In this document: one piece after another, positions 4,866-55,125 of the stretch | Position numbering within the stretch: position 1 is the stretch's first letter | How the letters are laid out: each line of letters opens with the position of its first letter | From: Candidatus Omnitrophota bacterium | GTDB taxonomy: Bacteria > Omnitrophota > Gorgyraeia > Tantalellales > Tantalellaceae | Reading direction: 5' to 3' | Length of the DNA stretch: 64,000 nucleotides | Assembly (NCBI GenBank): GCA_028715965.1 | Contig: JAQUQS010000005.1 | Coordinates: forward strand, 54,904-118,903 | Notes under the pieces: generated by a model | Told to the model about the DNA's origin: nothing | What the model saw: only the letters and a program-made list of their open reading frames with translations | The model's database searches: none | Program-made: the position numbers and the translations under genes

Positions 4866-5492
4866 TCATAGATCAGGTGGCGACACCGCGCCGCCGGAAA
4901 CTATGAGTTTCATCCCGTCCTCTACACTTATGTTCAGAAAATGCGCTTCCTCCCGCGGAACGATAAGGAATATCCCGCTCGTAGGGTTAGGCGTGGTCGG
5001 CAGGAACACCGCTATCGCCCCGTCGCCTGCCAGGGCCTTGAGCTCGCCTTTGGCGAACCCTGTGGTGAACCCGATGGAGTATATCCCTTTTCGCGGATAC
5101 TCTATCACTACAACGTTCCTGAACACCGTTTTCCCCTGGCCGAATATAGCTGAGAAGATCTGCTTGAAGGCCGCGTACACCCTTCCCATCACAGGTACTT
5201 TTATAAGGAGCCGCTCTCCAAGGGAGAATATCCGGTTTATGAAGATTATCTTGGCCCCCCATCCGATCAGGGCCATAGTGAATATGGCCAGCAGGAAAAC
5301 AAGGGTCTTCCCGATGAGCACATGCCTTCCGCCGCCTGTCGTCGCCGTGAACAATTCAAGTATTGGCTCCAGTATGGCATTATTCAGCCATTTGACCATG
5401 AAATTAACAAGGGCAATGGTCACCGCTACCGGCAGCAGGATAACTATGCCGTTAAAAAAGTTCACGAAGAACTTGTTCCAAATCTTCTTCAT
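4866..5492 (-). CDS. DUF502-family membrane protein
   Basis: The ORF runs 4866..5687, but conservation begins at the internal Met MKKIWNKFFVNFFNGIVILLPVAVTI.. (start about 5492). That start makes a 4-nt overlap with the upstream gene. Confidence 0.6.
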   Translation of the reverse strand: MKKIWNKFFVNFFNGIVILLPVAVTIALVNFMVKWLNNAILEPILELFTATTGGGRHVLIGKTLVFLLAIFTMALIGWGAKIIFINRIFSLGERLLIKVPVMGRVYAAFKQIFSAIFGQGKTVFRNVVVIEYPRKGIYSIGFTTGFAKGELKALAGDGAIAVFLPTTPNPTSGIFLIVPREEAHFLNISVEDGMKLIVSGGAVSPPDL

Positions 5493-6235
5493 AAATATCC
5501 GCTTCCCCCTAGTGAAAAAAGCTGAAAGATCAACAGCGTGATAAGCGCCCCCAGGACACTGCCCGCCACGACCTCGGCCGGCGAATGCACCCCCACGGAT
5601 ACACGGCTCCTGGCGACCACAAGCGCCATGAGGAATACCAGTATCGAGACCAGTCCGTTCCATGTCAAGAGTGATACTATCATCCATATCGAAAAAGCCA
5701 GGGCGGAATGGCCGCTGGGCATCCCTCCACGCAGAAGTGACCTTTCCTTTCGCATCACTTTTATGAAAAGCACTATCCCCACGACTATCAGCAGAGCGAT
5801 CAACGTAACATGCCAGGGGGATTGTTTTATCACGTTGAACGCCACCCCGACATGGGACGTTATCCGTCTGAAGAGCAGTATATACCCCACGATGAACGCG
5901 TTCACGGCACTGACGAACACAGCCCCGGCCGCTATATCCTTTATTATCTTCACCCTCTGGTCATATTCTCCGGTCATCATATCCACCATACGCTCAACGG
6001 CGGTATTGAACATCTCCGAAACAAGTACGAATGAGACCGCGAAACAAAGCAGCAGGAATTCCACGGATGAAAAATTAAAGTATATCCCGGCTATGAGCAC
6101 AAGGAACCCGGATAGAAAATGTATCCGCATGTTCCTCTCCGATTGAAGAGTATGCACTACCCCCTCAAGCGCGGTATTCACGCTCTGGAAAAAATTACGG
6201 TTATAGATATCTTTCAGCTTTCTTGAGTATTTCAT
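5489..6235 (-). CDS. dgkA: Diacylglycerol/undecaprenol kinase (DgkA) fused to a PAP2 phosphatase domain
   Basis: The N-terminal half has DgkA motifs (EMFNTAVE.., DIAAGAVF). The C-terminal half has PAP2 motifs (PSGH, SRVSVGVHSPAEVVAG). Confidence 0.75.
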   Translation of the reverse strand: MKYSRKLKDIYNRNFFQSVNTALEGVVHTLQSERNMRIHFLSGFLVLIAGIYFNFSSVEFLLLCFAVSFVLVSEMFNTAVERMVDMMTGEYDQRVKIIKDIAAGAVFVSAVNAFIVGYILLFRRITSHVGVAFNVIKQSPWHVTLIALLIVVGIVLFIKVMRKERSLLRGGMPSGHSALAFSIWMIVSLLTWNGLVSILVFLMALVVARSRVSVGVHSPAEVVAGSVLGALITLLIFQLFSLGGSGYL

Positions 6236-9827: not shown

Positions 9828-10226
9828 TCATTTAACGTACTCGGCCTCAAGGAACTCCGTCTCATCCAGATCTTCCGTCTGGGTCGTCGTGGTCTTTGTG
9901 ACCGTGACAGCGTCACCTGAGGTGGTCACCGTGGTCTTTTCTTCCACATAAACCTCTTTTTCCGCTACTGGAGCGGACTCGGCAGGTTCCTCGCTCCCTT
10001 CCATGGGAAGAGCCACATCCACACCGATGAGGGTCCTTTTCGTGTTTCTTGGAGCCGTGGTCGCGGGTGCCGTTCCCTGCAGGTATCCCTGATTACCGGA
10101 TATTTTCTGGTCGACACGGTCTTTCTGGAACGTATAGATCTCTATCGGTTTTTCTCCATCCACCGTAGCGCATCCCGAAAGGAACAGAACCCCCGCTAAA
10201 GAGAGAAATAACATGATCCTATACAT
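9828..10226 (-). CDS. Small Thr/Glu-rich lipoprotein (function unknown)
   Basis: Signal peptide with an LSGC lipobox (MYRIMLFLSLAGVLFLSGCA), followed by a Thr-rich acidic region. Confidence 0.55.
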   Translation of the reverse strand: MYRIMLFLSLAGVLFLSGCATVDGEKPIEIYTFQKDRVDQKISGNQGYLQGTAPATTAPRNTKRTLIGVDVALPMEGSEEPAESAPVAEKEVYVEEKTTVTTSGDAVTVTKTTTTQTEDLDETEFLEAEYVK

Positions 10227-13716: not shown

Positions 13717-16700
13717 TTACTTCGTTATGAACTTGACCTTGCCATGCCCCGTTATCTTTTCCAATTCTTCGACCATCTCATCAGATGTGGAGACATACAG
13801 GTCCTCTTCCAACGCAAGCCGTATCTTCCTGCCCTCAGGGGAAAGGAACTCGATAAAAGAGGGCGTATTCCCTTTGAACCGCTTGATGGTGGACTTTATC
13901 ATCTTCATGTTCTCCTCGCCCAGTCCAGCAGTGGAAAGTTTTATGAGCACGGCCTTTGTGAACCTTTCCTTGACCTGGTCTATCGGGATGATCTCTTCAG
14001 CGATTATTTTAGGTTCTTCTTCCCTAAGATTAAGCCGGCCATGTACATACACAAGATTATCTTCCCGGATAAGCTCGGGTGCCTTCCGGTATGTCTTGGG
14101 AAAGATCAATACCTCAATGAAGCTCTCGAGGTCCCCCAGGCTCACGATCGCCATCTTCTCACCTTTTTTCCTGGTCACCGTCGTGCGTACTTTATTTATC
14201 AATCCACCTATAAGTACAAGTTGTCCGTCCGACATGTTCGCCAGTTCCGATATGGTCGCGGTAGAATACATACCAAGCAGTTTCTCGTACCTGGTAAGCG
14301 GGTGCTTAGTGATATAAAACCCCAGCATTTCCTTTTCCCCGGACAAAAGCTCCGGTTCCGGCCATTCGGGTATATTCGGTATCTCCTCAAAGTTATTCTT
14401 GAAAGAATCTTCCGCGGCACTCTCGTCAAAGAACGACATCTGGCCTATTTCCCTGTCCCTGTTGGATTTAGCCGCCATGGTTATCACTTTGTCCAGCACG
14501 GACATCGCCTGGGACCTGAATATGCCGGTGGAATCCAACGCGCCACATTTTATAAGACTTTCCAGCACCTTGCGATTGACCGTTTTCGAGTCCACCTTCC
14601 GGGTCAGGTCATATATGGACTCGAACCTGCCGAAAGCCTGACGCGTGTTTATTATGCCTTCCGCGGCACCGGCGCCGACGTTCTTGACCGCCGACAAGCC
14701 GAACCGTATGTCCCCTCCTACGACCGTGAAGTCCTTATAGCTTTCGTTAACGTCCGGAGGCAATATATCGATCCCCATCCTGACCGCTTCATTTATATAA
14801 TCGGAGATCTTATCCATGTTGTTCTTTTCACTGGTAAGAAGCGCGGTCATGAACTCGACCGGGAAGTTGGCTTTAAGATAAGCCGTGCGATAGCTCACCA
14901 TGGCGTAGGCCGCCGAATGCGATTTATTGAACCCGTATCCGGCAAAGTACGCTATGAAATCCCATATCCTCTCGGCGGTAGCCGCGTCAACATTATTCTT
15001 CCTGGCGCCTTCGAGGAACTTGATCTTTATCCCCTCCAACGCGTCGGCGATCTTTTTCCCGACAACTTTCCTGACATTATCGGCTTCGGCCATGGAGAAA
15101 CCGGCTAGCACGGACACTATCTTCATGACCTGTTCCTGGTACACGATTATCCCATAAGTTTCTTTTAGGATCGGCTCAAGAAGGGCATGGTCATAGGTCA
15201 CCTTGACCTGGCCCTGTTTCCTCTTAATGAACTCATCGAGCATACCGCTACCCATGGGTCCCGGTCGGTACAGAGCAAGTATGGCTATAAGGTCTTCGAA
15301 TTTGTTGGGACGTATCTTCCTCAAAAGATCACGCATGCCGCTGGATTCCAGCTGGAACACCCCGGCCGTCTCCGCTCTTGATAGGAGTTCGAACGTTTTC
15401 CCGTCCTCCAACGATATCTTATCGATATCCACGTCCAGTTCCCTGGTACGCTTGATTATCTTCACTGCCTGGTCTATGACCGTGAGCGTTTTCAGCCCGA
15501 GAAAATCCATTTTGAGCATGCCTATCTGGTCGAGCGATTTCATGGCATAACCCGTTGTTATCTGGTCATCCGCGGTCTTGAACAGAGGTATCCTCTTGAT
15601 AAGAGGCTTGTCCGATATGACCACCCCCGCCGCGTGTGTCGAAGCGTGCCTGTTCAACCCTTCCAGCCTTAGGGAAGTATTGACAAGCTGCTTGACCATC
15701 GGGTCTTCATCATACTTGCTCCGGAGTTCGGGCTCGATCTCAAGAGCCCTCTCTAGCGTCATACCAAGGTCGTTAGGCACGAGCTTGGCTATCTTATCCA
15801 CCTCGGCATAAGGCATGCCCATTACCCTGCCGACATCCCGCAATACGCCTTTGGCCATCATCGTACCGAACGTTATTATCTGGGCGACGTTATCCTTGGA
15901 ATATTTCTCGATGACGTAATCTATCACCTCCTGCCTTCTCTCGAAGCAGAAGTCAATATCTATATCAGGCATGGTGACCCTTGCGGGATTAAGAAAACGC
16001 TCGAATATCAGGTCATACTTGAGCGGGTCTATATCGGTAATGCCCAGGGCATAACTTACTATACTTCCGGCGGCCGAACCGCGGCCTGGGCCTACCGGGA
16101 TCCCGTGACGTTTCGCGTAATTGATGAAATCCCATACTATCAGGAAATAACTGACATATCCGCTTTGCTCAATGATACCTATCTCGTGTTCCACCCTCTT
16201 CTGTATCTCATCACTGACCGCGTCATAGCGGGATCTGATGCCTTCCGCAACAAGCCTTTTGAAGAACACCAGGTTCTCTTCTCCGTCGGGAGCCTGAAAA
16301 TGCGGCAAATGCAGTTCACTGAAATCCAGTTCAAGGTTACATCTTTCAGCTATCTTCACGGTGTTCGCCACGGCGTCCGGCACTTCGGCAAAAGCTTTCT
16401 TCATTTCATCCGGAGTTTTAAAGTACAATTGGTCCGTCTGGAACTTCATGCGGTTCATATCGTCCAGCGTGGTCTGGGTCTGTATACAAAGAAGCGCGTC
16501 GTGCGCCTTGGCATCGCTCCTGTCTATATAATGCACATCGCATGTGGCCACAAGCCCCAGGTCCATTTCACGGGCAAGCTTTATAAGCCCCTTGTTCAAC
16601 TTATCCTGTCTCTCGAGCTGATTATCCTGAAGTTCCAGGAAAAAATTCTCTTTGCCGAATATCTCCGCGTATTCCCCGGCGGCTTTTCTCGCCTCGTTCC

Positions 16701-20423: not shown

Positions 20424-21239
20424 TCAGTTCCCCAGCCGAACAGTGTCAAAATAGCTTCTTACACACTCCATACAGGCCAGACAAGCCAGATAACTGGTCT
20501 TCGGGTTGTCCGGCGATGGGACATTCTCCGCCCTGAGAAAAAGCTTTCCGGCCTTTCCGTCGACCTCTATCTCGTGTATGTTCCGCGTATATTCCGGTGA
20601 AGTTACTATTCGCACCTTCGTTCTCTCAGGGCCGATACCGGCAAGCGACAACAACGCCGACACGTTGATGTTCTTGGGGAATTCTTTTACGGCATCAAGG
20701 GCCGATCCCTCGAATATCACGGTCTCCGTCCTGATGTTATCAAGCTCTATCGCGTTCTTCTGGATATATGGAGCGCCCGCGAGTGACGCGGGCGGCTTGC
20801 GTGTAGTTATCATAACACTGTCGATCCCGGCGATCTTCGCCGCCTTGATCCCGTCAATACCGGCTATTGCCCCCGACGGCAGGAACACCTTGATACCCGC
20901 CTCCCTGGCCTCTTTGAGGAGGCTTTCATTTCCCAACACACCGCCCGCGCTTATCACGATAACGTCTTTGTTCTTCCTGACAGCCGCGCTGAGCGCCGCG
21001 CGGACTATATCCGGACCGGCCGCCTCCACCACGACATCCGACATATCCACAAGAGCGTCCAGGTCCGGCGCCACAACGCAGTTCTTGATCCGTCCGGCCA
21101 GCGCGGTGACCCTTTCCGTGTTGATGTCGCATAAATTAGTACCGGAAACTTTAGCGGACAGTTCTTTCTCGATAAAAACAGCTATCGCCGTCCCGATGTT
21201 CCCACACCCTATTATCCCTACGGTCCTTTTTATGCTCAT
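20424..21239 (-). CDS. nadX: L-aspartate dehydrogenase (NadX)
   Basis: Internal start MSIKRTVGIIGCGNIGTAIA.. with a Rossmann motif and the Asp-DH (DUF108) core. Its ATG overlaps the nadA stop in an ATGA unit. Confidence 0.8.
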   Translation of the reverse strand: MSIKRTVGIIGCGNIGTAIAVFIEKELSAKVSGTNLCDINTERVTALAGRIKNCVVAPDLDALVDMSDVVVEAAGPDIVRAALSAAVRKNKDVIVISAGGVLGNESLLKEAREAGIKVFLPSGAIAGIDGIKAAKIAGIDSVMITTRKPPASLAGAPYIQKNAIELDNIRTETVIFEGSALDAVKEFPKNINVSALLSLAGIGPERTKVRIVTSPEYTRNIHEIEVDGKAGKLFLRAENVPSPDNPKTSYLACLACMECVRSYFDTVRLGN

Positions 21240-22171
21240 ACTACTTCCAGCATCCTTTCGAGGGATTTCCTGGCCCTCCTGGCTACGTTCTCCGGCACTT
21301 CTATCTTGTAAACCATCTTTTCCAGCGATCTGGCGAGCCATCCCAGTGTCGTAAGTTTCATGTTGGCACATATGAACTGGTCTGTAGGCATATAGAACTT
21401 CTTCTCGGGGTTGTCCCTCTGCAATCTGTAATCTATACCTGTTTCCGTCCCAACAATGAATTCCTTACGGTCCGACTCCCTGACATGCTTGATCATCGCG
21501 GCCGTGCTTCCTATGTATTCCGCCAGGTTAAGCACTTCTTTCCTGCATTCCGGATGCGCGATGAACTCGGCGTCCGGATACATGTTCTTGGTCCTCACGA
21601 CATCTTCCGCGGTCAGCCTCATATGAACCACACAGTACCCGTCCCACAGTATCAGCTCTTTCTCGGGAACATGCTCACGCACATATCTTCCGAGGTTCTT
21701 GTCCGGGACAAATATGACCTTATCTTCCCTGAGAGACCTTACCACTTCGATCGCGTTAGACGATGTGCAGCAGATATCACTTTCAGCCTTTACCGCCGCG
21801 GTCGAATTCACATAGCACACTACCGCAGCCTCGGGATATTCCTCTTTTTTCTTCTTAAGTTTCTCCACCGTTACCATGTCCGCCAGAGGGCATCCGGCTT
21901 CCTCGACAGGAAGAAGTATGGTCTTGTCCGGGCTGAGGATATACGCGCTTTCCGCCATGAATTTAACACCGCAGAACACCACGACTTTCTCTTTCGCGCG
22001 CGTTACTTCCCTGGCAAGCGCGAAAGAATCACCGGTGATATCAGCTACTTCCTGGATCTCATCCCGCTGATAATTATGCGCGACTATGAGCGCCCCCACC
22101 TTGTGCTTGAGCTCCTTTATTTTACGCTTAAGATGGTCCTTGTACCTTGCGTCAAATTCCTTGTACGGCAT
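21236..22171 (-). CDS. nadA: Quinolinate synthase A
   Basis: 311 aa with the NadA family signature and conserved Cys ligands. Confidence 0.9.
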   Translation of the reverse strand: MPYKEFDARYKDHLKRKIKELKHKVGALIVAHNYQRDEIQEVADITGDSFALAREVTRAKEKVVVFCGVKFMAESAYILSPDKTILLPVEEAGCPLADMVTVEKLKKKKEEYPEAAVVCYVNSTAAVKAESDICCTSSNAIEVVRSLREDKVIFVPDKNLGRYVREHVPEKELILWDGYCVVHMRLTAEDVVRTKNMYPDAEFIAHPECRKEVLNLAEYIGSTAAMIKHVRESDRKEFIVGTETGIDYRLQRDNPEKKFYMPTDQFICANMKLTTLGWLARSLEKMVYKIEVPENVARRARKSLERMLEVV

Positions 22172-22216: not shown

Positions 22217-23545
22217 TCATATGATGACATTATCTATCAACCTGGTCCCACCCAGGAAAGCGGCCACCGCGATAAGTGTGCCTTCTTCCACCTTTTCCGT
22301 ATCCTCAAGAGTATCCCTGTCGACGAAACCGATATAATCCACGCGGATATTCCCGCCTGATGACATTATCCGGCGCATCTCCTCCGATATCTTCCGGCTG
22401 TCACATTCCCCCGAGCATACCATTTCCCTGGCCGCAACAAGCGCTCCGTGGATCAACACCGCTTCATCACGTTCCTCGGTGGAAAGATAAGCGTTCCTGG
22501 AACTCATCGCCAACCCGTCCGGCTCGCGCACTATAGGCATTACTCTTATCCTTGCCGGGACATTAAGATCGGAGAACATTTTCTTGATCACAGCCGCCTG
22601 CTGAGCGTCTTTCTGCCCCAGGTATACCACATCAGGCTGTACTATATTGACAAGTTTCAGGACGACCGTAGCGACGCCCCTGAAATGCCCCGGTCTTGAC
22701 GCGCCGCAAAGGTTTTCCGCGACGGTACCTTTCACGTCCACGTACGTACCGTATCCTTCTGGATACATCTCCGGGACCGACGGAACGAATATTACATCCA
22801 CACGCTCCTTCTCGGCGACATGCCTGTCCCTCTCCTGGTCCCTGGGATATTTTCCCAGGTCCTCGTTCTGACCGAACTGCATGGGATTAACAAATACGCT
22901 CATCACCACCTGGTCGCATTCTTCCCTGGCGGCCCTGAGAAGACTGGCGTGTCCCTCATGGAGATACCCCATGGTCGGCACGAAGCCTATCCTCTCCCCA
23001 CGGCCCTTTATCCTGGCCGCGATATCCGTCATGTCCTTCAATGCGGTAACTATTTTCATTTTGTTCTCACGTTCAGGTGAAAGGTCTGTGCCCGCATCCC
23101 GATATAGCTCGCGTACGGTCTTGTTCAGCACCGGATGTACCACATCAGGGGCTATTTCTTCCAATCCTTTCAGGACAAAACCTCTACGGTGCATCCTGGG
23201 GTGAGGTATAGTAAGATCTTGTTCGTCGATTACCATATCACCGAACAAAAGTATATCGATATCGATTATCCGCGGATAGTTCCTGGGAGCTTTACGGCGC
23301 CCCATTTCTTTTTCTATGGATTTAAGCCTGTCCAACATGTCCCTGGGGCCGATGCCGGTCTCTACCTTGATGACCCCGTTAAGAAAATCCGGCTGGGGCG
23401 GGCCTCCACACGGTCCTGTCCTGTACAATCCGGACCTTCGAAGTATCACGGTATCCGGGACCGCCGCTATCTTTTCAAACGCCTCCCGGACATTCCTCTC
23501 CGTGTCCCCTTCATTCGTACCTATGCCAAGATACACAATGGCCAT
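22217..23545 (-). CDS. HPPK (FolK) fused to pantoate--beta-alanine ligase (PanC)
   Basis: Residues 1-150 match HPPK (IVYLGIGTN.GD.., QPDFLNGVIKVET, IIDIDILLFGD). Residues about 165-442 match PanC (FVPTMGYLHEGH HxGH motif, MSSRN). It is a single uninterrupted ORF. Confidence 0.8.
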   Translation of the reverse strand: MAIVYLGIGTNEGDTERNVREAFEKIAAVPDTVILRRSGLYRTGPCGGPPQPDFLNGVIKVETGIGPRDMLDRLKSIEKEMGRRKAPRNYPRIIDIDILLFGDMVIDEQDLTIPHPRMHRRGFVLKGLEEIAPDVVHPVLNKTVRELYRDAGTDLSPERENKMKIVTALKDMTDIAARIKGRGERIGFVPTMGYLHEGHASLLRAAREECDQVVMSVFVNPMQFGQNEDLGKYPRDQERDRHVAEKERVDVIFVPSVPEMYPEGYGTYVDVKGTVAENLCGASRPGHFRGVATVVLKLVNIVQPDVVYLGQKDAQQAAVIKKMFSDLNVPARIRVMPIVREPDGLAMSSRNAYLSTEERDEAVLIHGALVAAREMVCSGECDSRKISEEMRRIMSSGGNIRVDYIGFVDRDTLEDTEKVEEGTLIAVAAFLGGTRLIDNVII

Positions 23546-23564: not shown

Positions 23565-24749
23565 TTAGCTGAAGAACGCGTTCTTGATCCTGCTCACGGC
23601 CTCTTTGATCGTCTCCTCGCCTACCGTAAGCGCCATTCTTACATATCCTTCACCATTTGGTCCGAACCCGTTGCCCGGGGTAACGATTATATCCGCCTTT
23701 TCGAGCATATCCTTTGCCAGCGACATAGAGTCATACGCGCCAAAGACCGGGGCCCACACGTAAAAAGTAGCTTTAGGCGACGGCACGTTCCATCCGGCTT
23801 TCCTCAACCCATCGACAAGCACATCCCTTCTCCCCTGATAGAGCCTGGACAGGACAGCCTTCACGTTATCGGCCTTTTTCAGCGCTTCGATAGAAGCTAT
23901 CTGTATTGCCGTGAATATCCCTGAATCTATGTTCGATTTGACCTTGGCCAACCCGTTTATGATCTCAGGGTCCCCTATGGCCATACCGACCCTCCATCCT
24001 GTCATATTGAAGGTCTTGGACAGGGAATGGAACTCTATCCCCACCTCTTTAGCCCCTTCCACCTCAAGAAAGCTCATGGGCTTATACCCGTCGTAACTCA
24101 TCTCGGTATACGCGGCATCGGCACATACGATGATGTTGTTCTCCCGGGCGAATCTTACCACTTTCTCATAGAAATCCTTTCCGCAGACCGCGCCGGTGGG
24201 ATTATTCGGATAGTTTATATGGATAAGACGAGCACGTTTGGCTATATCCTTGTCTATAGCGTCCAGGTCCGGAAGAAAACCGTTCTTCTCAAGAAGGGGC
24301 ATGAAATGGACCTCGCCCCCCGCGAAGATCGCGCCGGAATTGTACGGTGGATACCCCGGGTCCGGTACCAATACAACATCCCCGGGTTCAACAAAAGCGA
24401 GCGGCACATGCGCTATGCCTTCCTTGGACCCGAGTAACGGCAAGACCTCAGTGGCCGGGTCCACTTTGACGCCGAAACGTCCCTCGAACCAATCCGCCAT
24501 GGCCCCACGTAACGTCTTAAGCCCGCGGTTCAGCGCGTATTTATGTGTGGCCGGGTCCATGCTGGCCTCATGCAGCTTTTTAATTATGAAATCCGGTGTC
24601 GGCGTATCTGGATCCCCTACGCCCAGGTCAATGACCGGCCTGCCTTCACTGACCGCCTTGTTCTTCGCCCTGTCTATCTCCTCAAAAAGATAAGGAGGGA
24701 GTTTTCTCAATCTTTCCGCTACTCTCACTTCCATCGTCATCCCTTTCAT
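23565..24749 (-). CDS. dapL: LL-diaminopimelate aminotransferase
   Basis: LPPYLFEEIDRAKNKAVSEGRPVIDLGVGDPD.. N-terminus and a PLP-lysine region, typical of DapL. Confidence 0.85.
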   Translation of the reverse strand: MKGMTMEVRVAERLRKLPPYLFEEIDRAKNKAVSEGRPVIDLGVGDPDTPTPDFIIKKLHEASMDPATHKYALNRGLKTLRGAMADWFEGRFGVKVDPATEVLPLLGSKEGIAHVPLAFVEPGDVVLVPDPGYPPYNSGAIFAGGEVHFMPLLEKNGFLPDLDAIDKDIAKRARLIHINYPNNPTGAVCGKDFYEKVVRFARENNIIVCADAAYTEMSYDGYKPMSFLEVEGAKEVGIEFHSLSKTFNMTGWRVGMAIGDPEIINGLAKVKSNIDSGIFTAIQIASIEALKKADNVKAVLSRLYQGRRDVLVDGLRKAGWNVPSPKATFYVWAPVFGAYDSMSLAKDMLEKADIIVTPGNGFGPNGEGYVRMALTVGEETIKEAVSRIKNAFFS

Positions 24750-51768: not shown

Positions 51769-53103
51769 TCAGGCAGGAGGTTCTTCGGCGGAAAGACCCG
51801 GACCAACCCCCCGCAGAGATAGAAAAACGAAAAGGACCCACATTACAAGGACCGACATCGCGCCGGACCCCAGGCTCTTCATAAATCGGTCTGCTTGCAG
51901 AGCATAGAGCAGAAAGGCTATAATAAATACGATATCGGCAACACGTTCTACCTTTTCCGGCATCTTACCCCGGACGGTGTTGAATGCCAACACGGGAAAT
52001 ACCATCGAGGCCAGGAGATGCGTCTGCACCACAGGAAAAAGCAATATCATGCATAAAAGCATGACAGCATACTCAACCGATGTGCTTTCCCTGCTGGAAC
52101 GCTTCCTGCCCATCACGACCGCGCTGAAAGATACCAGCAGGATCATCAGTGATATGAACTTTGTAGCGACCTCGACCTGATAAGGTGGAAGCTTGACCGG
52201 GAACGGTATCTTATGCTTTATGTTGTTCCCCACCCATTCATCTATATCCTCTATATCGGCTTTCGGGTCGTAATAATAATCGGTAAGATACCGGGCCAAC
52301 ACGGCCGAAAGCGACTGGTTGCTCAGCTTGCACAATGACTCGAAATGCGTATAATTATCTTCCAGTCTTTTCGCGGGTGGCCTCGCGTATGGGGCCATTT
52401 TCATCCGGGCCCAGTCCCCCATCTCCGAGCGGAACCTGTCCACCCCCATGCAAGCGACAGGGACCGCGAACACAAAGAGAAAAATACCGATAAGCGCGCC
52501 GGCTATTATCCTTACCTTCCCCTTGAACGTAAAATACAGCAGGAGGAACAATGGATATATCTTTATCACGCCGGCAGCGGCGATGATGATGCCCGCCCAG
52601 AGATCCCGGTGTTTTTCATGCGCGTAAAGGGAAAGCACTATCAGGAAATATATCATGAAATCCACCTGTGCCAGGGATATGTTATCCAAAAGCGCGCTGA
52701 ATATGAACAGAACGGATATTATGTTCAGGATAAGGCTCCGGCGCGAAAAAATACCTCGCCAGTCGAACGTACCGGAGACCAGACGTACGGTAATAAGAAA
52801 AGACATAATAAAAAATGAAAGACCCAGTAGATACCAGACCAGTGACGCGACCCTTAAGGATAAAAGCGTAAGCGGCGATACCAGTATGGCGAACAGCGGC
52901 AGGTAAAGATACGGGGAAACGGTAGTGCTGAACACCTCAGCCCTGTAGACAGTAACGCCTTCGCGCATAAATTTGCCGGCGGTATAATATGTATCCAGGT
53001 CATTAGACCCGGATACGGTCCTCATATCGTGATATACGCCAAACCCCACCAATACGCATACCACCAGCACCACAAATACTTTTTTAGTGATCCTTACTTT
53101 CAC
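51769..53103 (-). CDS. Polytopic membrane protein, DUF2029/GT87-like (GT-C fold glycosyltransferase candidate)
   Basis: 444 aa with about 11 TM helices. An N-terminal loop after TM1 carries a conserved Y..AG motif. Family-level call only. Confidence 0.45.
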   Translation of the reverse strand: MKVRITKKVFVVLVVCVLVGFGVYHDMRTVSGSNDLDTYYTAGKFMREGVTVYRAEVFSTTVSPYLYLPLFAILVSPLTLLSLRVASLVWYLLGLSFFIMSFLITVRLVSGTFDWRGIFSRRSLILNIISVLFIFSALLDNISLAQVDFMIYFLIVLSLYAHEKHRDLWAGIIIAAAGVIKIYPLFLLLYFTFKGKVRIIAGALIGIFLFVFAVPVACMGVDRFRSEMGDWARMKMAPYARPPAKRLEDNYTHFESLCKLSNQSLSAVLARYLTDYYYDPKADIEDIDEWVGNNIKHKIPFPVKLPPYQVEVATKFISLMILLVSFSAVVMGRKRSSRESTSVEYAVMLLCMILLFPVVQTHLLASMVFPVLAFNTVRGKMPEKVERVADIVFIIAFLLYALQADRFMKSLGSGAMSVLVMWVLFVFLSLRGVGPGLSAEEPPA

Positions 53104-54038
53104 TTTTTCCCGCCTAATATCACGTCTTCGGCGTCCCGCAACCCACGCATGAACGATACCGCGTCCATGGGCTTTTTGCCCTCCAGCTGGACACTGCCTA
53201 TCCTCACTCCACCCTGGGACGTGTTAACGATGAGCTCGTCCCCGACTATAAGCTTCCCTGCCGGACCGGGAGGCATATCACCACACTCCCGGGCCTCGAG
53301 TATTTTAAGGGTCCTTCCATTCATATATGTATACGTGCCGGGCCACGGGTAGAAAGCCCTTACCATGCGGCAGATCTCTTCGGCGCTCCTGGTCCAGTCT
53401 ATTTCGCCATCCGCCCTTTTCAACCTGGGGGCGTATGTTACTTTTGCGTCGTCCTGCGGGGACATCTGTTCGGTCCCCGCGGCTATCTTGTCCAGGGCAC
53501 TGACAAGAAGCTCCGCCCCGCTCGTAGAAAGTCGCGTCAAAAGCTCCCCGGCGTTCTCTCCCGGCCGTATCTCCAAGCATGACTGCAGAATGATATCCCC
53601 GGCATCCATGCGCTCGTTCATACGGATAACGGTATTACCGGATATGGGGTCTCCTTTTAATATGGTATAGTTCACAGGCGAGGCTCCCCTGTGCCTCGGG
53701 AGGAGCGAAGGATGCAGATTAACGCAATATTTACCAGGAAGGGACAGAATACCGCTTGTGAGTATCTGCCCGTAATCGACCACGACGAAAACATCCGCCT
53801 CCAGGGTCCTCAGGGTATCAATAAACGCGGGGTCTGACACTTTTTCCGGCTGGAACACGTCCATACCAGGCAATATCTTACCGGCCACAGCCTTGACCGG
53901 TGACGGTTCCATGTTCCATCCCCGGCCCTTTTTTTTATCCGGTTGCGTAACAACGGCCACCAGCTCATGGGAGGTCGTAACTATCCTTTTAAGCGAAACT
54001 ATACTATAACTTCCGGTACCGAAGAATATTATCTTCAT
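53100..54038 (-). CDS. fmt: Methionyl-tRNA formyltransferase
   Basis: MKIIFFGTG.., HPSLLPRHRGASP (SLLP motif) and a C-terminal OB domain. Start at Met15 of the track ORF. Confidence 0.9.
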   Translation of the reverse strand: MKIIFFGTGSYSIVSLKRIVTTSHELVAVVTQPDKKKGRGWNMEPSPVKAVAGKILPGMDVFQPEKVSDPAFIDTLRTLEADVFVVVDYGQILTSGILSLPGKYCVNLHPSLLPRHRGASPVNYTILKGDPISGNTVIRMNERMDAGDIILQSCLEIRPGENAGELLTRLSTSGAELLVSALDKIAAGTEQMSPQDDAKVTYAPRLKRADGEIDWTRSAEEICRMVRAFYPWPGTYTYMNGRTLKILEARECGDMPPGPAGKLIVGDELIVNTSQGGVRIGSVQLEGKKPMDAVSFMRGLRDAEDVILGGKK

Positions 54039-54039
54039 A

Positions 54040-55125
54040 TCACGCTTCCTTTTTCGGGGTGAACGCCGTGAGCAGACCATCCACCGACGAGATCACCTCT
54101 TCCACACTTATGCTGTCCATACATGGCACCGGGTTCTTTCCCGAGCATAACCGCCGCATATCCTCGTCAAATCCCTCATTATCATGGCATGGACCACAAT
54201 CATGGCCCTTTCTTATCATATTATAGACCCCGGGGCCTATGGGACCCGTAAACAACGGATTGGACGGACCGAAAAGGACCGTCAGGGGAACGCCAAGCGC
54301 TCTCGCGAAATGCGCCACTCCCGTGTCCGCGCACAGAACACCGCAAGAGCTCCCGATCATGGCTATGACCTCAAAGATCGGCCGGCCTACGGCTTTGCCG
54401 ACCATTTCCCGCCTAAGACACATCTTTACCATCTTGTCTATCTCATCCCTTTCGTTCTCCCGGCCTGTGATCACCACCTTACGCCCTACGGAGGTCAGAT
54501 GGTCAATAACAGACACATACCTGTCGTGCGCCCATCCACGGTACGGCAAGAACTCCGTACATCCCGGATGTATGATAAAATATTCCCCGGGCTGGGTATC
54601 ATACGCCCCCAATATACCCGACAGGCGTGACCGTACCTCCTCAGGCACAAAAAGGTCCATCTTGTGGTCCTCTTCGGTGATCCCGCAACCTAAGGCCTTT
54701 TCGACAAGACGCAGGTTGTTCTCTATAAGATGCCTGCCCGTATCTTTTTTTATGCCGTCGTACAGGACCTCATCGAACACATGCCCGAGAAAACCGTATT
54801 TTCTGGAAGACTTACCCGCTATACCTACGACAAATGACCTGTGTTCCTTGTTCGTATCCAGCATAAAACAACGCGTATACGGCCTTCCCGCCAGTGAGCG
54901 GGCAAGGATCGGCCGCCTGAACCACTTTTCGATCTTATGGAATTTCCTGTATTCACATATTTCATTCACATACGGGTTACCGTTAAGAACGAACATAGAC
55001 CCGGTGATGGTAAGCACATCTATGACAACCCCGGGGATAACGTTCTTGATCTTACGTATCATTGGCGTCACCATAAGGACGTCACCTATATTACCAATCT
55101 TTGTCACAAGTACTCGTTCAGCCAT
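54040..55125 (-). CDS. Glycosyltransferase family 9 (LPS heptosyltransferase-like)
   Basis: GT9 GT-B fold with a MAERVLVTKIGNIGDVLM.. N-terminus and a C-terminal ..CADTGVAH.. donor-binding region. Confidence 0.8.
   Translation of the reverse strand: MAERVLVTKIGNIGDVLMVTPMIRKIKNVIPGVVIDVLTITGSMFVLNGNPYVNEICEYRKFHKIEKWFRRPILARSLAGRPYTRCFMLDTNKEHRSFVVGIAGKSSRKYGFLGHVFDEVLYDGIKKDTGRHLIENNLRLVEKALGCGITEEDHKMDLFVPEEVRSRLSGILGAYDTQPGEYFIIHPGCTEFLPYRGWAHDRYVSVIDHLTSVGRKVVITGRENERDEIDKMVKMCLRREMVGKAVGRPIFEVIAMIGSSCGVLCADTGVAHFARALGVPLTVLFGPSNPLFTGPIGPGVYNMIRKGHDCGPCHDNEGFDEDMRRLCSGKNPVPCMDSISVEEVISSVDGLLTAFTPKKEA

Follow-up and report, generated by a model that had tools for sequence, protein, structure and literature searches.

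A candidate folK-panC gene fusion in an Omnitrophota genome and its apparently independent origin

Introduction

Is an open reading frame that runs through both folK and panC in an Omnitrophota genome a genuine gene for a two-domain enzyme and, if so, how did it come about and does it tie folate synthesis to pantothenate synthesis? The question is raised by a 64-kb stretch of DNA from Candidatus Omnitrophota bacterium (assembly GCA_028715965.1, contig JAQUQS010000005.1, positions 54,904-118,903 of the forward strand), referred to hereafter as the window. A first-pass annotation of this DNA had proposed a single-ORF fusion of 6-hydroxymethyl-7,8-dihydropterin pyrophosphokinase (HPPK, the folK product) and pantothenate synthetase (PanC). 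A copy of folK is often found in pantothenate operons, where its activity is untested (de Crecy-Lagard et al., 2007, PMC1971073), and the pathways for pantothenate, CoA and tetrahydrofolate are reported to be encoded in over 75% of the species genomes in Omnitrophota (Seymour et al., 2023, PMC10066038). The link between folK and the pantothenate operon is already published, and the fused architecture is present, uncurated, in dozens of public sequences; a literature search, of incomplete coverage, returned no description of a FolK-PanC fusion.

Results

One reading frame spans complete HPPK and PanC domains

The ORF occupies 22217..23545 on the minus strand, from an ATG at 23545 to a TGA at 22217-22219, and both the ORF list and the sequence show it to be uninterrupted (442 codons plus the stop, giving a protein of 442 aa). 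The strand is the one point in which the first-pass annotation was amended. Pfam found only PF01288 and PF02569 in the 442-aa chain, both domains scored above their cut-offs, and the two lie in one frame without an intervening stop, in the window DNA and equally in a near-identical public contig. The proposal of a single-ORF FolK-PanC fusion was borne out, as one 442-codon ORF contains two complete domains.

The HPPK domain (residues 1-150; 23096..23545, minus strand) was delimited by Pfam, NCBIfam, PDB, conserved residues and an AF2 model. PF01288 (HPPK) matched residues 5-133 along its whole profile (1-116 of 116; 119 bits against a cut-off of 25.7; E = 1.8e-34), and the folK equivalog TIGR01498 scored 127.6 bits against a cut-off of 54.1 (model positions 1-128 of 128), confirming the claim that the N-terminal ~150 aa are a complete HPPK. 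The NCBIfam match to NF007595 spanned residues 1-144. Solved HPPK chains in the PDB aligned with query residues 1-139 (E about 1e-29), those of E. coli over 3-139, and in the alignment the N-terminus of the fusion ORF lined up with the N-termini of other FolKs. Residue conservation was assessed by aligning the window protein with 26 full-length two-domain relatives. In these 27 fused proteins the HPPK residues N56, E78, R83, R92, D95, D97, H115, R121 and F123 were invariant. They correspond to N55, E77, R82, R92, D95, D97, H115, R121 and F123 of E. coli HPPK, which bind Mg/ATP and pterin. The AF2 model gave the domain a pLDDT of about 90-97 and placed its last helix at residues 144-150. By sequence, the N-terminal domain appears to be a canonical HPPK (FolK) with predicted activity: it would move a pyrophosphate moiety from ATP onto 6-hydroxymethyl-7,8-dihydropterin, a step of the folate pathway.

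The PanC domain (pantoate--beta-alanine ligase, or pantothenate synthetase; residues 163-442; 22220..23059, minus strand) was equally well defined by Pfam, NCBIfam, PDB and Foldseek. PF02569 (Pantoate_ligase) matched residues 164-441 over its full length (1-268 of 268; 348 bits; E = 3.9e-104), and the panC equivalog TIGR00018 scored 328 bits against a cut-off of 212.75 (model positions 1-282 of 283); the match takes in the N-terminal Rossmann domain of PanC as well as its C-terminal domain. Met163 aligned with residue 1 of solved PanC chains (PDB 2ejc, E = 3e-93), and the PanC part of the predicted structure superimposed on 3mxt and 2ejc with a TM-score of 0.96 and an rmsd of 1.0 A in Foldseek. 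The earlier description of the C-terminal ~280 aa as a complete PanC with HxGH and MSSRN motifs held: the full PF02569 profile is covered and both motifs are present, as HEGH at 196-199 and MSSRN at 347-351. The residues M192, H196, H199, Q223, K312, D313, Q316 and S348-S-R-N351 were invariant in the 27 fused proteins. This domain is predicted, again by sequence, to be an active canonical pantothenate synthetase, which would condense pantoate with beta-alanine through a pantoyl-adenylate intermediate in the final step of pantothenate synthesis. PanC enzymes are normally homodimers.

Between the two domains lie 12 residues, 151-162 (AGTDLSPERENK), encoded by 36 nt at 23060..23095 on the minus strand. 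This agrees with the in-frame joining by a short linker that had been proposed and with the junction placed at about 23060-23090. The linker is followed by the Met163 codon (23057..23059, minus strand), the ancestral panC start. In an AF2 model built on the fused-family alignment (mean pLDDT 90, pTM 0.66), only residues 153-161 fell below a pLDDT of 50; in the alignment itself the linker region was variable in length and unconserved. Two rigid bodies held together by a flexible tether would account for the pTM of 0.66, and Foldseek found no solved chain covering both domains. The model suggests that the domains would fold independently, joined by a disordered tether of ~12 residues and with two separate active sites. 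Since the linker is disordered and unconserved, substrate channelling would not be expected, nor is it supported. A shared intermediate is not expected either.

The fused gene is incompletely annotated in a public assembly

The same locus was found in a public Omnitrophota MAG, GCA_028710465.1, on contig JAQTUB010000003.1 (254,974 bp; locus L001). The two assemblies, which may share related read sets so that their agreement is perhaps not fully independent, differed at 8 of 12,843 bases (0.06%) and were identical at the junction. The sole difference within the ORF (window position 23000) is synonymous, and both assemblies encode the same 442-aa protein. The earlier suggestion that a sequencing error at the junction might conceal two separate genes was examined by this comparison, which returned the same in-frame junction and the same protein and restored no separate genes. 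Because a second assembly has an identical junction and protein, a private sequencing error is unlikely.

The public annotation of this contig contains only a 280-aa PanC (P0001) that starts at Met163, its gene lying at 6001-6843 of L001; P0001 is 100% identical to the window protein over 63% of the query. The 506 nt upstream of the P0001 gene, which encode HPPK, carry no gene call. A search with the HPPK domain found no identical FolK protein in a collection of 5.8 billion proteins, the best match being a standalone Omnitrophota FolK with 59% identity; the FolK of this genome is therefore absent from public protein sets. De novo folate synthesis is diagnosed with HPPK as a signature enzyme (PMC1971073) and, since FolK is unannotated here, a pathway reconstruction of the MAG would wrongly score folate synthesis as incomplete. 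The main practical point of this work is this annotation gap, which leaves the public record of the genome without a FolK.

The same architecture recurs in other genomes

A search for the same fusion in relatives had been suggested, and the architecture was readily found. A word-indexed search of 5.8 billion proteins yielded 26 full-length relatives with both PF01288 and PF02569 (43-54% identical, 420-470 aa); Omnitrophota MAGs supplied most of them and a Planctomycetes MAG supplied one. An exhaustive profile search of 1.84 billion cluster representatives (50% identity) placed at least 22 full-length two-domain representatives among its top 150. Domain mapping of all retrieved proteins brought the total to at least 47 other public fused proteins, from Omnitrophota and Planctomycetota. 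Their lengths range from 420 to 477 aa. The NCBI name of the fused homologs is usually just 'pantoate--beta-alanine ligase', and NCBIfam contains no model for the HPPK-PanC architecture. The fusion had been called unusual. This stands insofar as the fused form is a minority state, but it has to be set against a tally of at least 47 other proteins, and of at least 22 clusters when grouped at 50% identity.

Five fused relatives, from several independent samples, were confirmed as single ORFs in DNA. They include P0012 (L002), P0015 (L089 and L090, two assemblies), P0069 (L091) and P0021, which was present on 13 contigs (three of them L092-L094). Each half of the fusion gains independent support from the gene context in other fused lineages, two of these genes having a neighbour from one of the two pathways. 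The fused gene for P0069 lies directly after folB and overlaps its end; folB makes the HPPK substrate. That for P0021 is separated by a single base from the next gene, panD, whose product supplies PanC with beta-alanine.

The window gene lies in a conserved order in which folK and panC are usually separate

In the window, the fused gene is preceded, at a distance of 19 nt, by a gene for LL-diaminopimelate aminotransferase (DapL; 23565..24749, minus strand; NF006756, 594.7 bits against a cut-off of 507). This dapL is the last gene of a lysA-dapF-dapA-dapB-dapL block, and it precedes folK in all syntenic relatives. Downstream, 45 nt past the fusion stop, is nadA (21236-22171, minus strand; NF006878 NadA, 419 bits against a cut-off of 294), then a gene for aspartate dehydrogenase (20424-21239, minus strand; NF009828 subfamily, 177.2 bits against a cut-off of 177), and the relatives keep the same downstream order of nadA and then aspartate dehydrogenase. 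The order lysA-dapF-dapA-dapB-dapL-folK-panC-nadA-aspDH-Na/Pi symporter is conserved in Omnitrophota, and there, as in Planctomycetota and Nitrospirota, folK and panC are packed very closely together. Besides the fused gene, the 64-kb window was found to hold no fol or pan biosynthesis genes; it does contain fmt, for a folate-dependent formyltransferase, at 53100-54080. Scans for promoters and terminators between 18000 and 30500 returned no more sites than shuffled sequence, and Rfam and tRNA scans found no RNA genes in the window.

All 14 syntenic relatives that are nearest to the window or come from GTDB genomes have two genes. The scan of GTDB species genomes covered a sample, with at least 600 matching stretches. 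Nine loci among the matches listed, from Omnitrophota, Planctomycetota and Nitrospirota, had a tblastn match over residues 1-442, and these were rejected as fused loci, the reading frames showing two genes in each. Taken at face value, tblastn coverage would overstate the spread of the fusion. The junctions of the unfused pairs are of several types: a 4-nt ATGA overlap (L008, L017, L078), a 1-nt spacer (L005, L006, L087, L088), an overlap of 14 nt (L009) or 26 nt (L003/L004), an in-frame stop with the panC start directly after it (L007, L011, L053), and a gap of 86-94 nt (L019, L086).

The fusion appears to have arisen in the window's own lineage

In a tree of PanC domains, 85 PanCs labelled unfused were closer to that of the window than any fused one. 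Because P0001 is an annotation artefact, 'unfused' labels from protein databases were re-checked in DNA, and the unfused state was verified in this way for the nearest neighbours P0034, P0055, P0075, P0028 and P0030. Fused forms fell into ~25 separate clades of this tree, a neighbour-joining tree without support values, so that the number of events is approximate. With its nearest neighbours unfused in DNA, the window gene did not trace to a single fusion event common to it and the other fused proteins. The idea that the fusion might mark a lineage has to be given up for the wider clade, given the 85 PanCs labelled unfused that are closer than any fused one.

The junction itself points the same way. 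FolK of the nearest relatives ends in '...EELFRDLGEV*' or '...GEE*', with a single base left before the ATG of panC, which is in a different frame; in the window the junction reads '...RELYRD-AGTDLSPERENK-MKIV...'. From the conserved R-D codons to the panC ATG there are 36 nt in the window against 16 nt in L087 and L088, where the 16 nt include the stop and lie in another frame. The 36 nt of the window take the place of the FolK tail, stop codon and spacer of the nearest relatives. This indicates that in the window lineage a net gain of ~20 nt abolished the stop of folK and brought the two genes into a common frame, adjacent folK and panC being so closely packed that small changes at the junction could merge them. 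Judged from the tree and the junction sequences, the window fusion is an event of its own that arose independently. It also appears to be evolutionarily young, because none of the nearest relatives shares it, and as such it gives no evidence of having been selected for over a long period. Elsewhere on the PanC-domain tree, all-fused clades reach down to 40-55% PanC-domain identity, which shows that the fused state is viable and capable of lasting.

Two specific origins had been put forward, fusion within an operon after loss of a stop codon and fusion after loss of panB. The general idea of an operon fusion is retained, in that neighbouring genes lost their separation. The E. coli order is folK-panB-panC; in every syntenic relative panB is absent from between the two genes and folK directly abuts panC. 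Loss of panB was rejected as the origin, there being no panB at the junction in any relative. Simple loss of a stop codon does not describe the change either, as the junction is 20 nt longer than that of the nearest relatives and the frames have been merged. A point mutation in the stop codon was rejected for the window lineage, and would suffice in L007, L011 and L053.

Discussion

We conclude, with a probability of about 0.8, that the window gene is a genuine gene fusion encoding a bifunctional enzyme, both activities being predicted. It is very unlikely that an assembly or sequencing artefact, a one-base indel at the junction, falsely merged two overlapping genes. Separate genes are indeed the rule (14/14 of the syntenic loci nearest the window or from GTDB genomes), and a frame shifted by one base within the 36-nt linker would terminate at a TGA overlapping the ATG of panC, the ATGA arrangement of L008, L017 and L078. 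Against this, the two assemblies, with 8 differences in 12,843 bases, have exactly the same junction and 442-aa product, the junction departs from those of the nearest relatives by ~20 nt rather than by one base, and the architecture was DNA-confirmed in many independent samples from other lineages, as on the 13 contigs with P0021. We also see little likelihood that only, or mainly, PanC is made, from the internal Met163, with the HPPK half a decaying or untranslated remnant. The NCBI pipeline did call a 280-aa PanC there and placed no gene in the 506 nt before it, and Met163 is the ancestral panC start. The ribosome-binding evidence is weak in both directions: Met163 has just a weak GAG motif 6 nt upstream, a poorer signal than the AGGAGG-like sites present at about half of the window genes, and the ATG of the fusion itself has an AGGA motif too far upstream. 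The upstream 162 codons are nevertheless free of stops and score as a full-length FolK equivalog, the catalytic residues of HPPK are all intact in a domain that is predicted to fold confidently, and the N-terminus of the ORF matches those of other FolKs. Additional internal initiation at Met163 may occur beside the full-length product of the fused gene.

A different reading accepts the fusion and gives it a functional meaning: the HPPK-like domain would serve pantothenate/CoA rather than folate, or the two enzymes would form a regulated unit, a 'Rosetta stone' signal. It draws on the folK copies known in pantothenate operons, of untested activity (PMC1971073), on a folK-panC pairing that spans three phyla, and on fused forms in ~25 neighbour-joining PanC clades with very different linkers. 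A further point in its favour is that PanB requires methylene-tetrahydrofolate to make ketopantoate. However, the HPPK domain is canonical wherever a pterin-, ATP- or Mg-binding position was inspected, folB immediately precedes one of the fused genes, and the disordered, unconserved linker and pTM of 0.66 support no interface between the domains. In addition, junctions one mutation away from fusion are common, and recurrent neutral fusion is expected for that reason. We hold a functional meaning of this kind to be very unlikely for the window gene. The broader proposition, that the recurrent and apparently independent joining of FolK to PanC reflects real folate-pantothenate/CoA coupling through co-regulation, a complex or a pan-specific FolK, is rated low because HPPK is canonical and many junctions are one mutation from fusion, and we consider it unlikely. 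Neutral recurrence is the simpler explanation. If coupling were real, it would open a way to explain why folK lies in pantothenate operons, a placement noted long ago and still unaccounted for.

A genuine fusion would fix an obligatory 1:1 co-expression of both enzymes within a long co-directional block of biosynthetic genes; it may be selectively neutral or advantageous. Both enzymes are well understood and the domains resemble their ordinary forms, so that we anticipate no new chemistry. The present data add evidence at the level of the fusion to the known association of folK with pantothenate operons. The locus also shows clearly how translationally coupled, overlapping genes become fusion proteins, the intermediate junction types all being present in relatives.

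Among known multi-domain enzymes, the closest counterpart on the PanC side is PanC/Cmk (NF010004), the only curated PanC fusion. As in the window, PanC is covalently linked there to the product of a neighbouring gene, an unrelated enzyme that uses a nucleotide. That enzyme is a C-terminal cytidylate kinase in PanC/Cmk and an N-terminal HPPK in the window; the window protein scored 315.9 bits against the NF010004 cut-off of 524, and matched only model positions 3-281 of 514, the PanC half. HPPK also occurs as a module of multi-domain proteins, in FolB-FolK (PDB 2cg8) and FolK-FolP (PDB 3mcm, 2bmb and 6jwq), with which the HPPK of the window aligns. The partners in those proteins catalyse adjacent steps of the same pathway, whereas that of the window belongs to a different cofactor pathway; neither a FolB (PF02152) nor a DHPS domain was found in the window chain by Pfam or NCBIfam, and 2cg8 and 3mcm match by the HPPK module only.

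The other fused proteins (e.g. P0002, P0012, P0015, P0021, P0025 and P0069) have the domain order and the invariant catalytic residues of the window protein, and some of their genes share its dap/aspDH synteny. They are 43-54% identical to it, and on the PanC tree its nearest relatives are other proteins. Their linkers differ too: in some the final HPPK helix is absent and there is nearly no linker, and others have an Arg-rich linker of 20-40 aa, differences which suggest independent origins. The separate folK-panC pairs of Omnitrophota, Planctomycetota and Nitrospirota encode the same enzymes in the same order, and unfused Omnitrophota loci have the flanks of the window gene, dapL upstream and nadA/aspDH downstream. 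In contrast to these pairs, which are read as two polypeptides by virtue of an ATGA overlap, a spacer of 1 nt, or a stop that is either in frame or in a different frame, the window gene is read as one.

The folK half in the public annotation

Comparison of the window with the public contig JAQTUB010000003.1, which encodes the same 442-aa protein, revealed eight single-base substitutions across 12.8 kb (0.06%), at window positions 16248, 18841, 21093, 21602, 23000, 23856, 26281 and 26583. The window therefore derives from an assembly or strain that is very close to that of the contig without matching it fully. The public annotation of JAQTUB010000003.1 places no gene in a 506-nt stretch corresponding to window 23060-23545 (5496-6000 of our extract of that contig, L001), and the folK of this genome is thus unannotated. 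A collection of 5.8 billion proteins contained no FolK protein identical to that of the window.

Genes surrounding the fusion

The fused folK-panC ORF lies in a long run of co-directional biosynthetic genes on the minus strand (window 17284-40099), in the order argC-argJ-argB-argD-argF-argG-argH, lysA-dapF-dapA-dapB-dapL, folK/panC, nadA, aspartate dehydrogenase, Na/Pi symporter and GuaB3. Many steps of this block consume aspartate or aspartate-derived metabolites; rpsI/rplM, truA and asd are located further upstream. In one relative with unfused folK and panC whose locus is syntenic apart from this insertion, a Y1 (IS200/IS605-type) transposase gene (PF01797; L003 7653-8243, L004 5365-5955) sits between the aspartate dehydrogenase and Na/Pi symporter genes. 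This transposase gene is absent from the window.

Nearly all long ORFs of the window (1-64000) are on the minus strand. Among the few on the plus strand is a 336-aa ORF (816-1826), which matched no NCBIfam family; a 132-aa minus-strand ORF (9828-10226) matched neither an NCBIfam nor a Pfam family. Scans of the whole 64 kb (window 1-64000) for tRNA, tmRNA and Rfam families gave no match. The minus-strand ORF at window 5489-6235 contains two enzyme domains, a prokaryotic diacylglycerol kinase (PF01219) and a PAP2 phosphatase (PF01569), and judged by these domains is another two-enzyme fusion besides folK-panC.

PanC fusions and near-fusions in other genomes

A three-part arrangement was found in P0129, a 661-aa protein from a Pirellulales MAG, in which HPPK is followed by a deoxynucleoside-kinase-like P-loop domain (PF01712, a weak match) and then by PanC. 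At a related Planctomycetota locus (L053 3001-4950), an ORF of about 400 codons includes the HPPK part, and nothing but an in-frame stop divides it from PanC. Further PanC fusions in public data, recovered as profile-search matches (P0186, P0229 and P0146), comprise the architectures CYTH-PanC (474 aa), F420_oxidored/DUF2520-PanC (580 aa) and PanC-HTH_8 (380 aa). The F420_oxidored/DUF2520 partner is possibly ketopantoate-reductase-like.

In unfused loci from Planctomycetota and Nitrospirales genomes (L007, L011 and L053), folK and panC share a reading frame and are separated by a lone stop codon (L007 3493-3495, L011 3541-3543 and L053 4087-4089), with the panC start directly after it. In these gene pairs a single point mutation, or readthrough of the stop on a single occasion, is all that is needed for a fusion protein.
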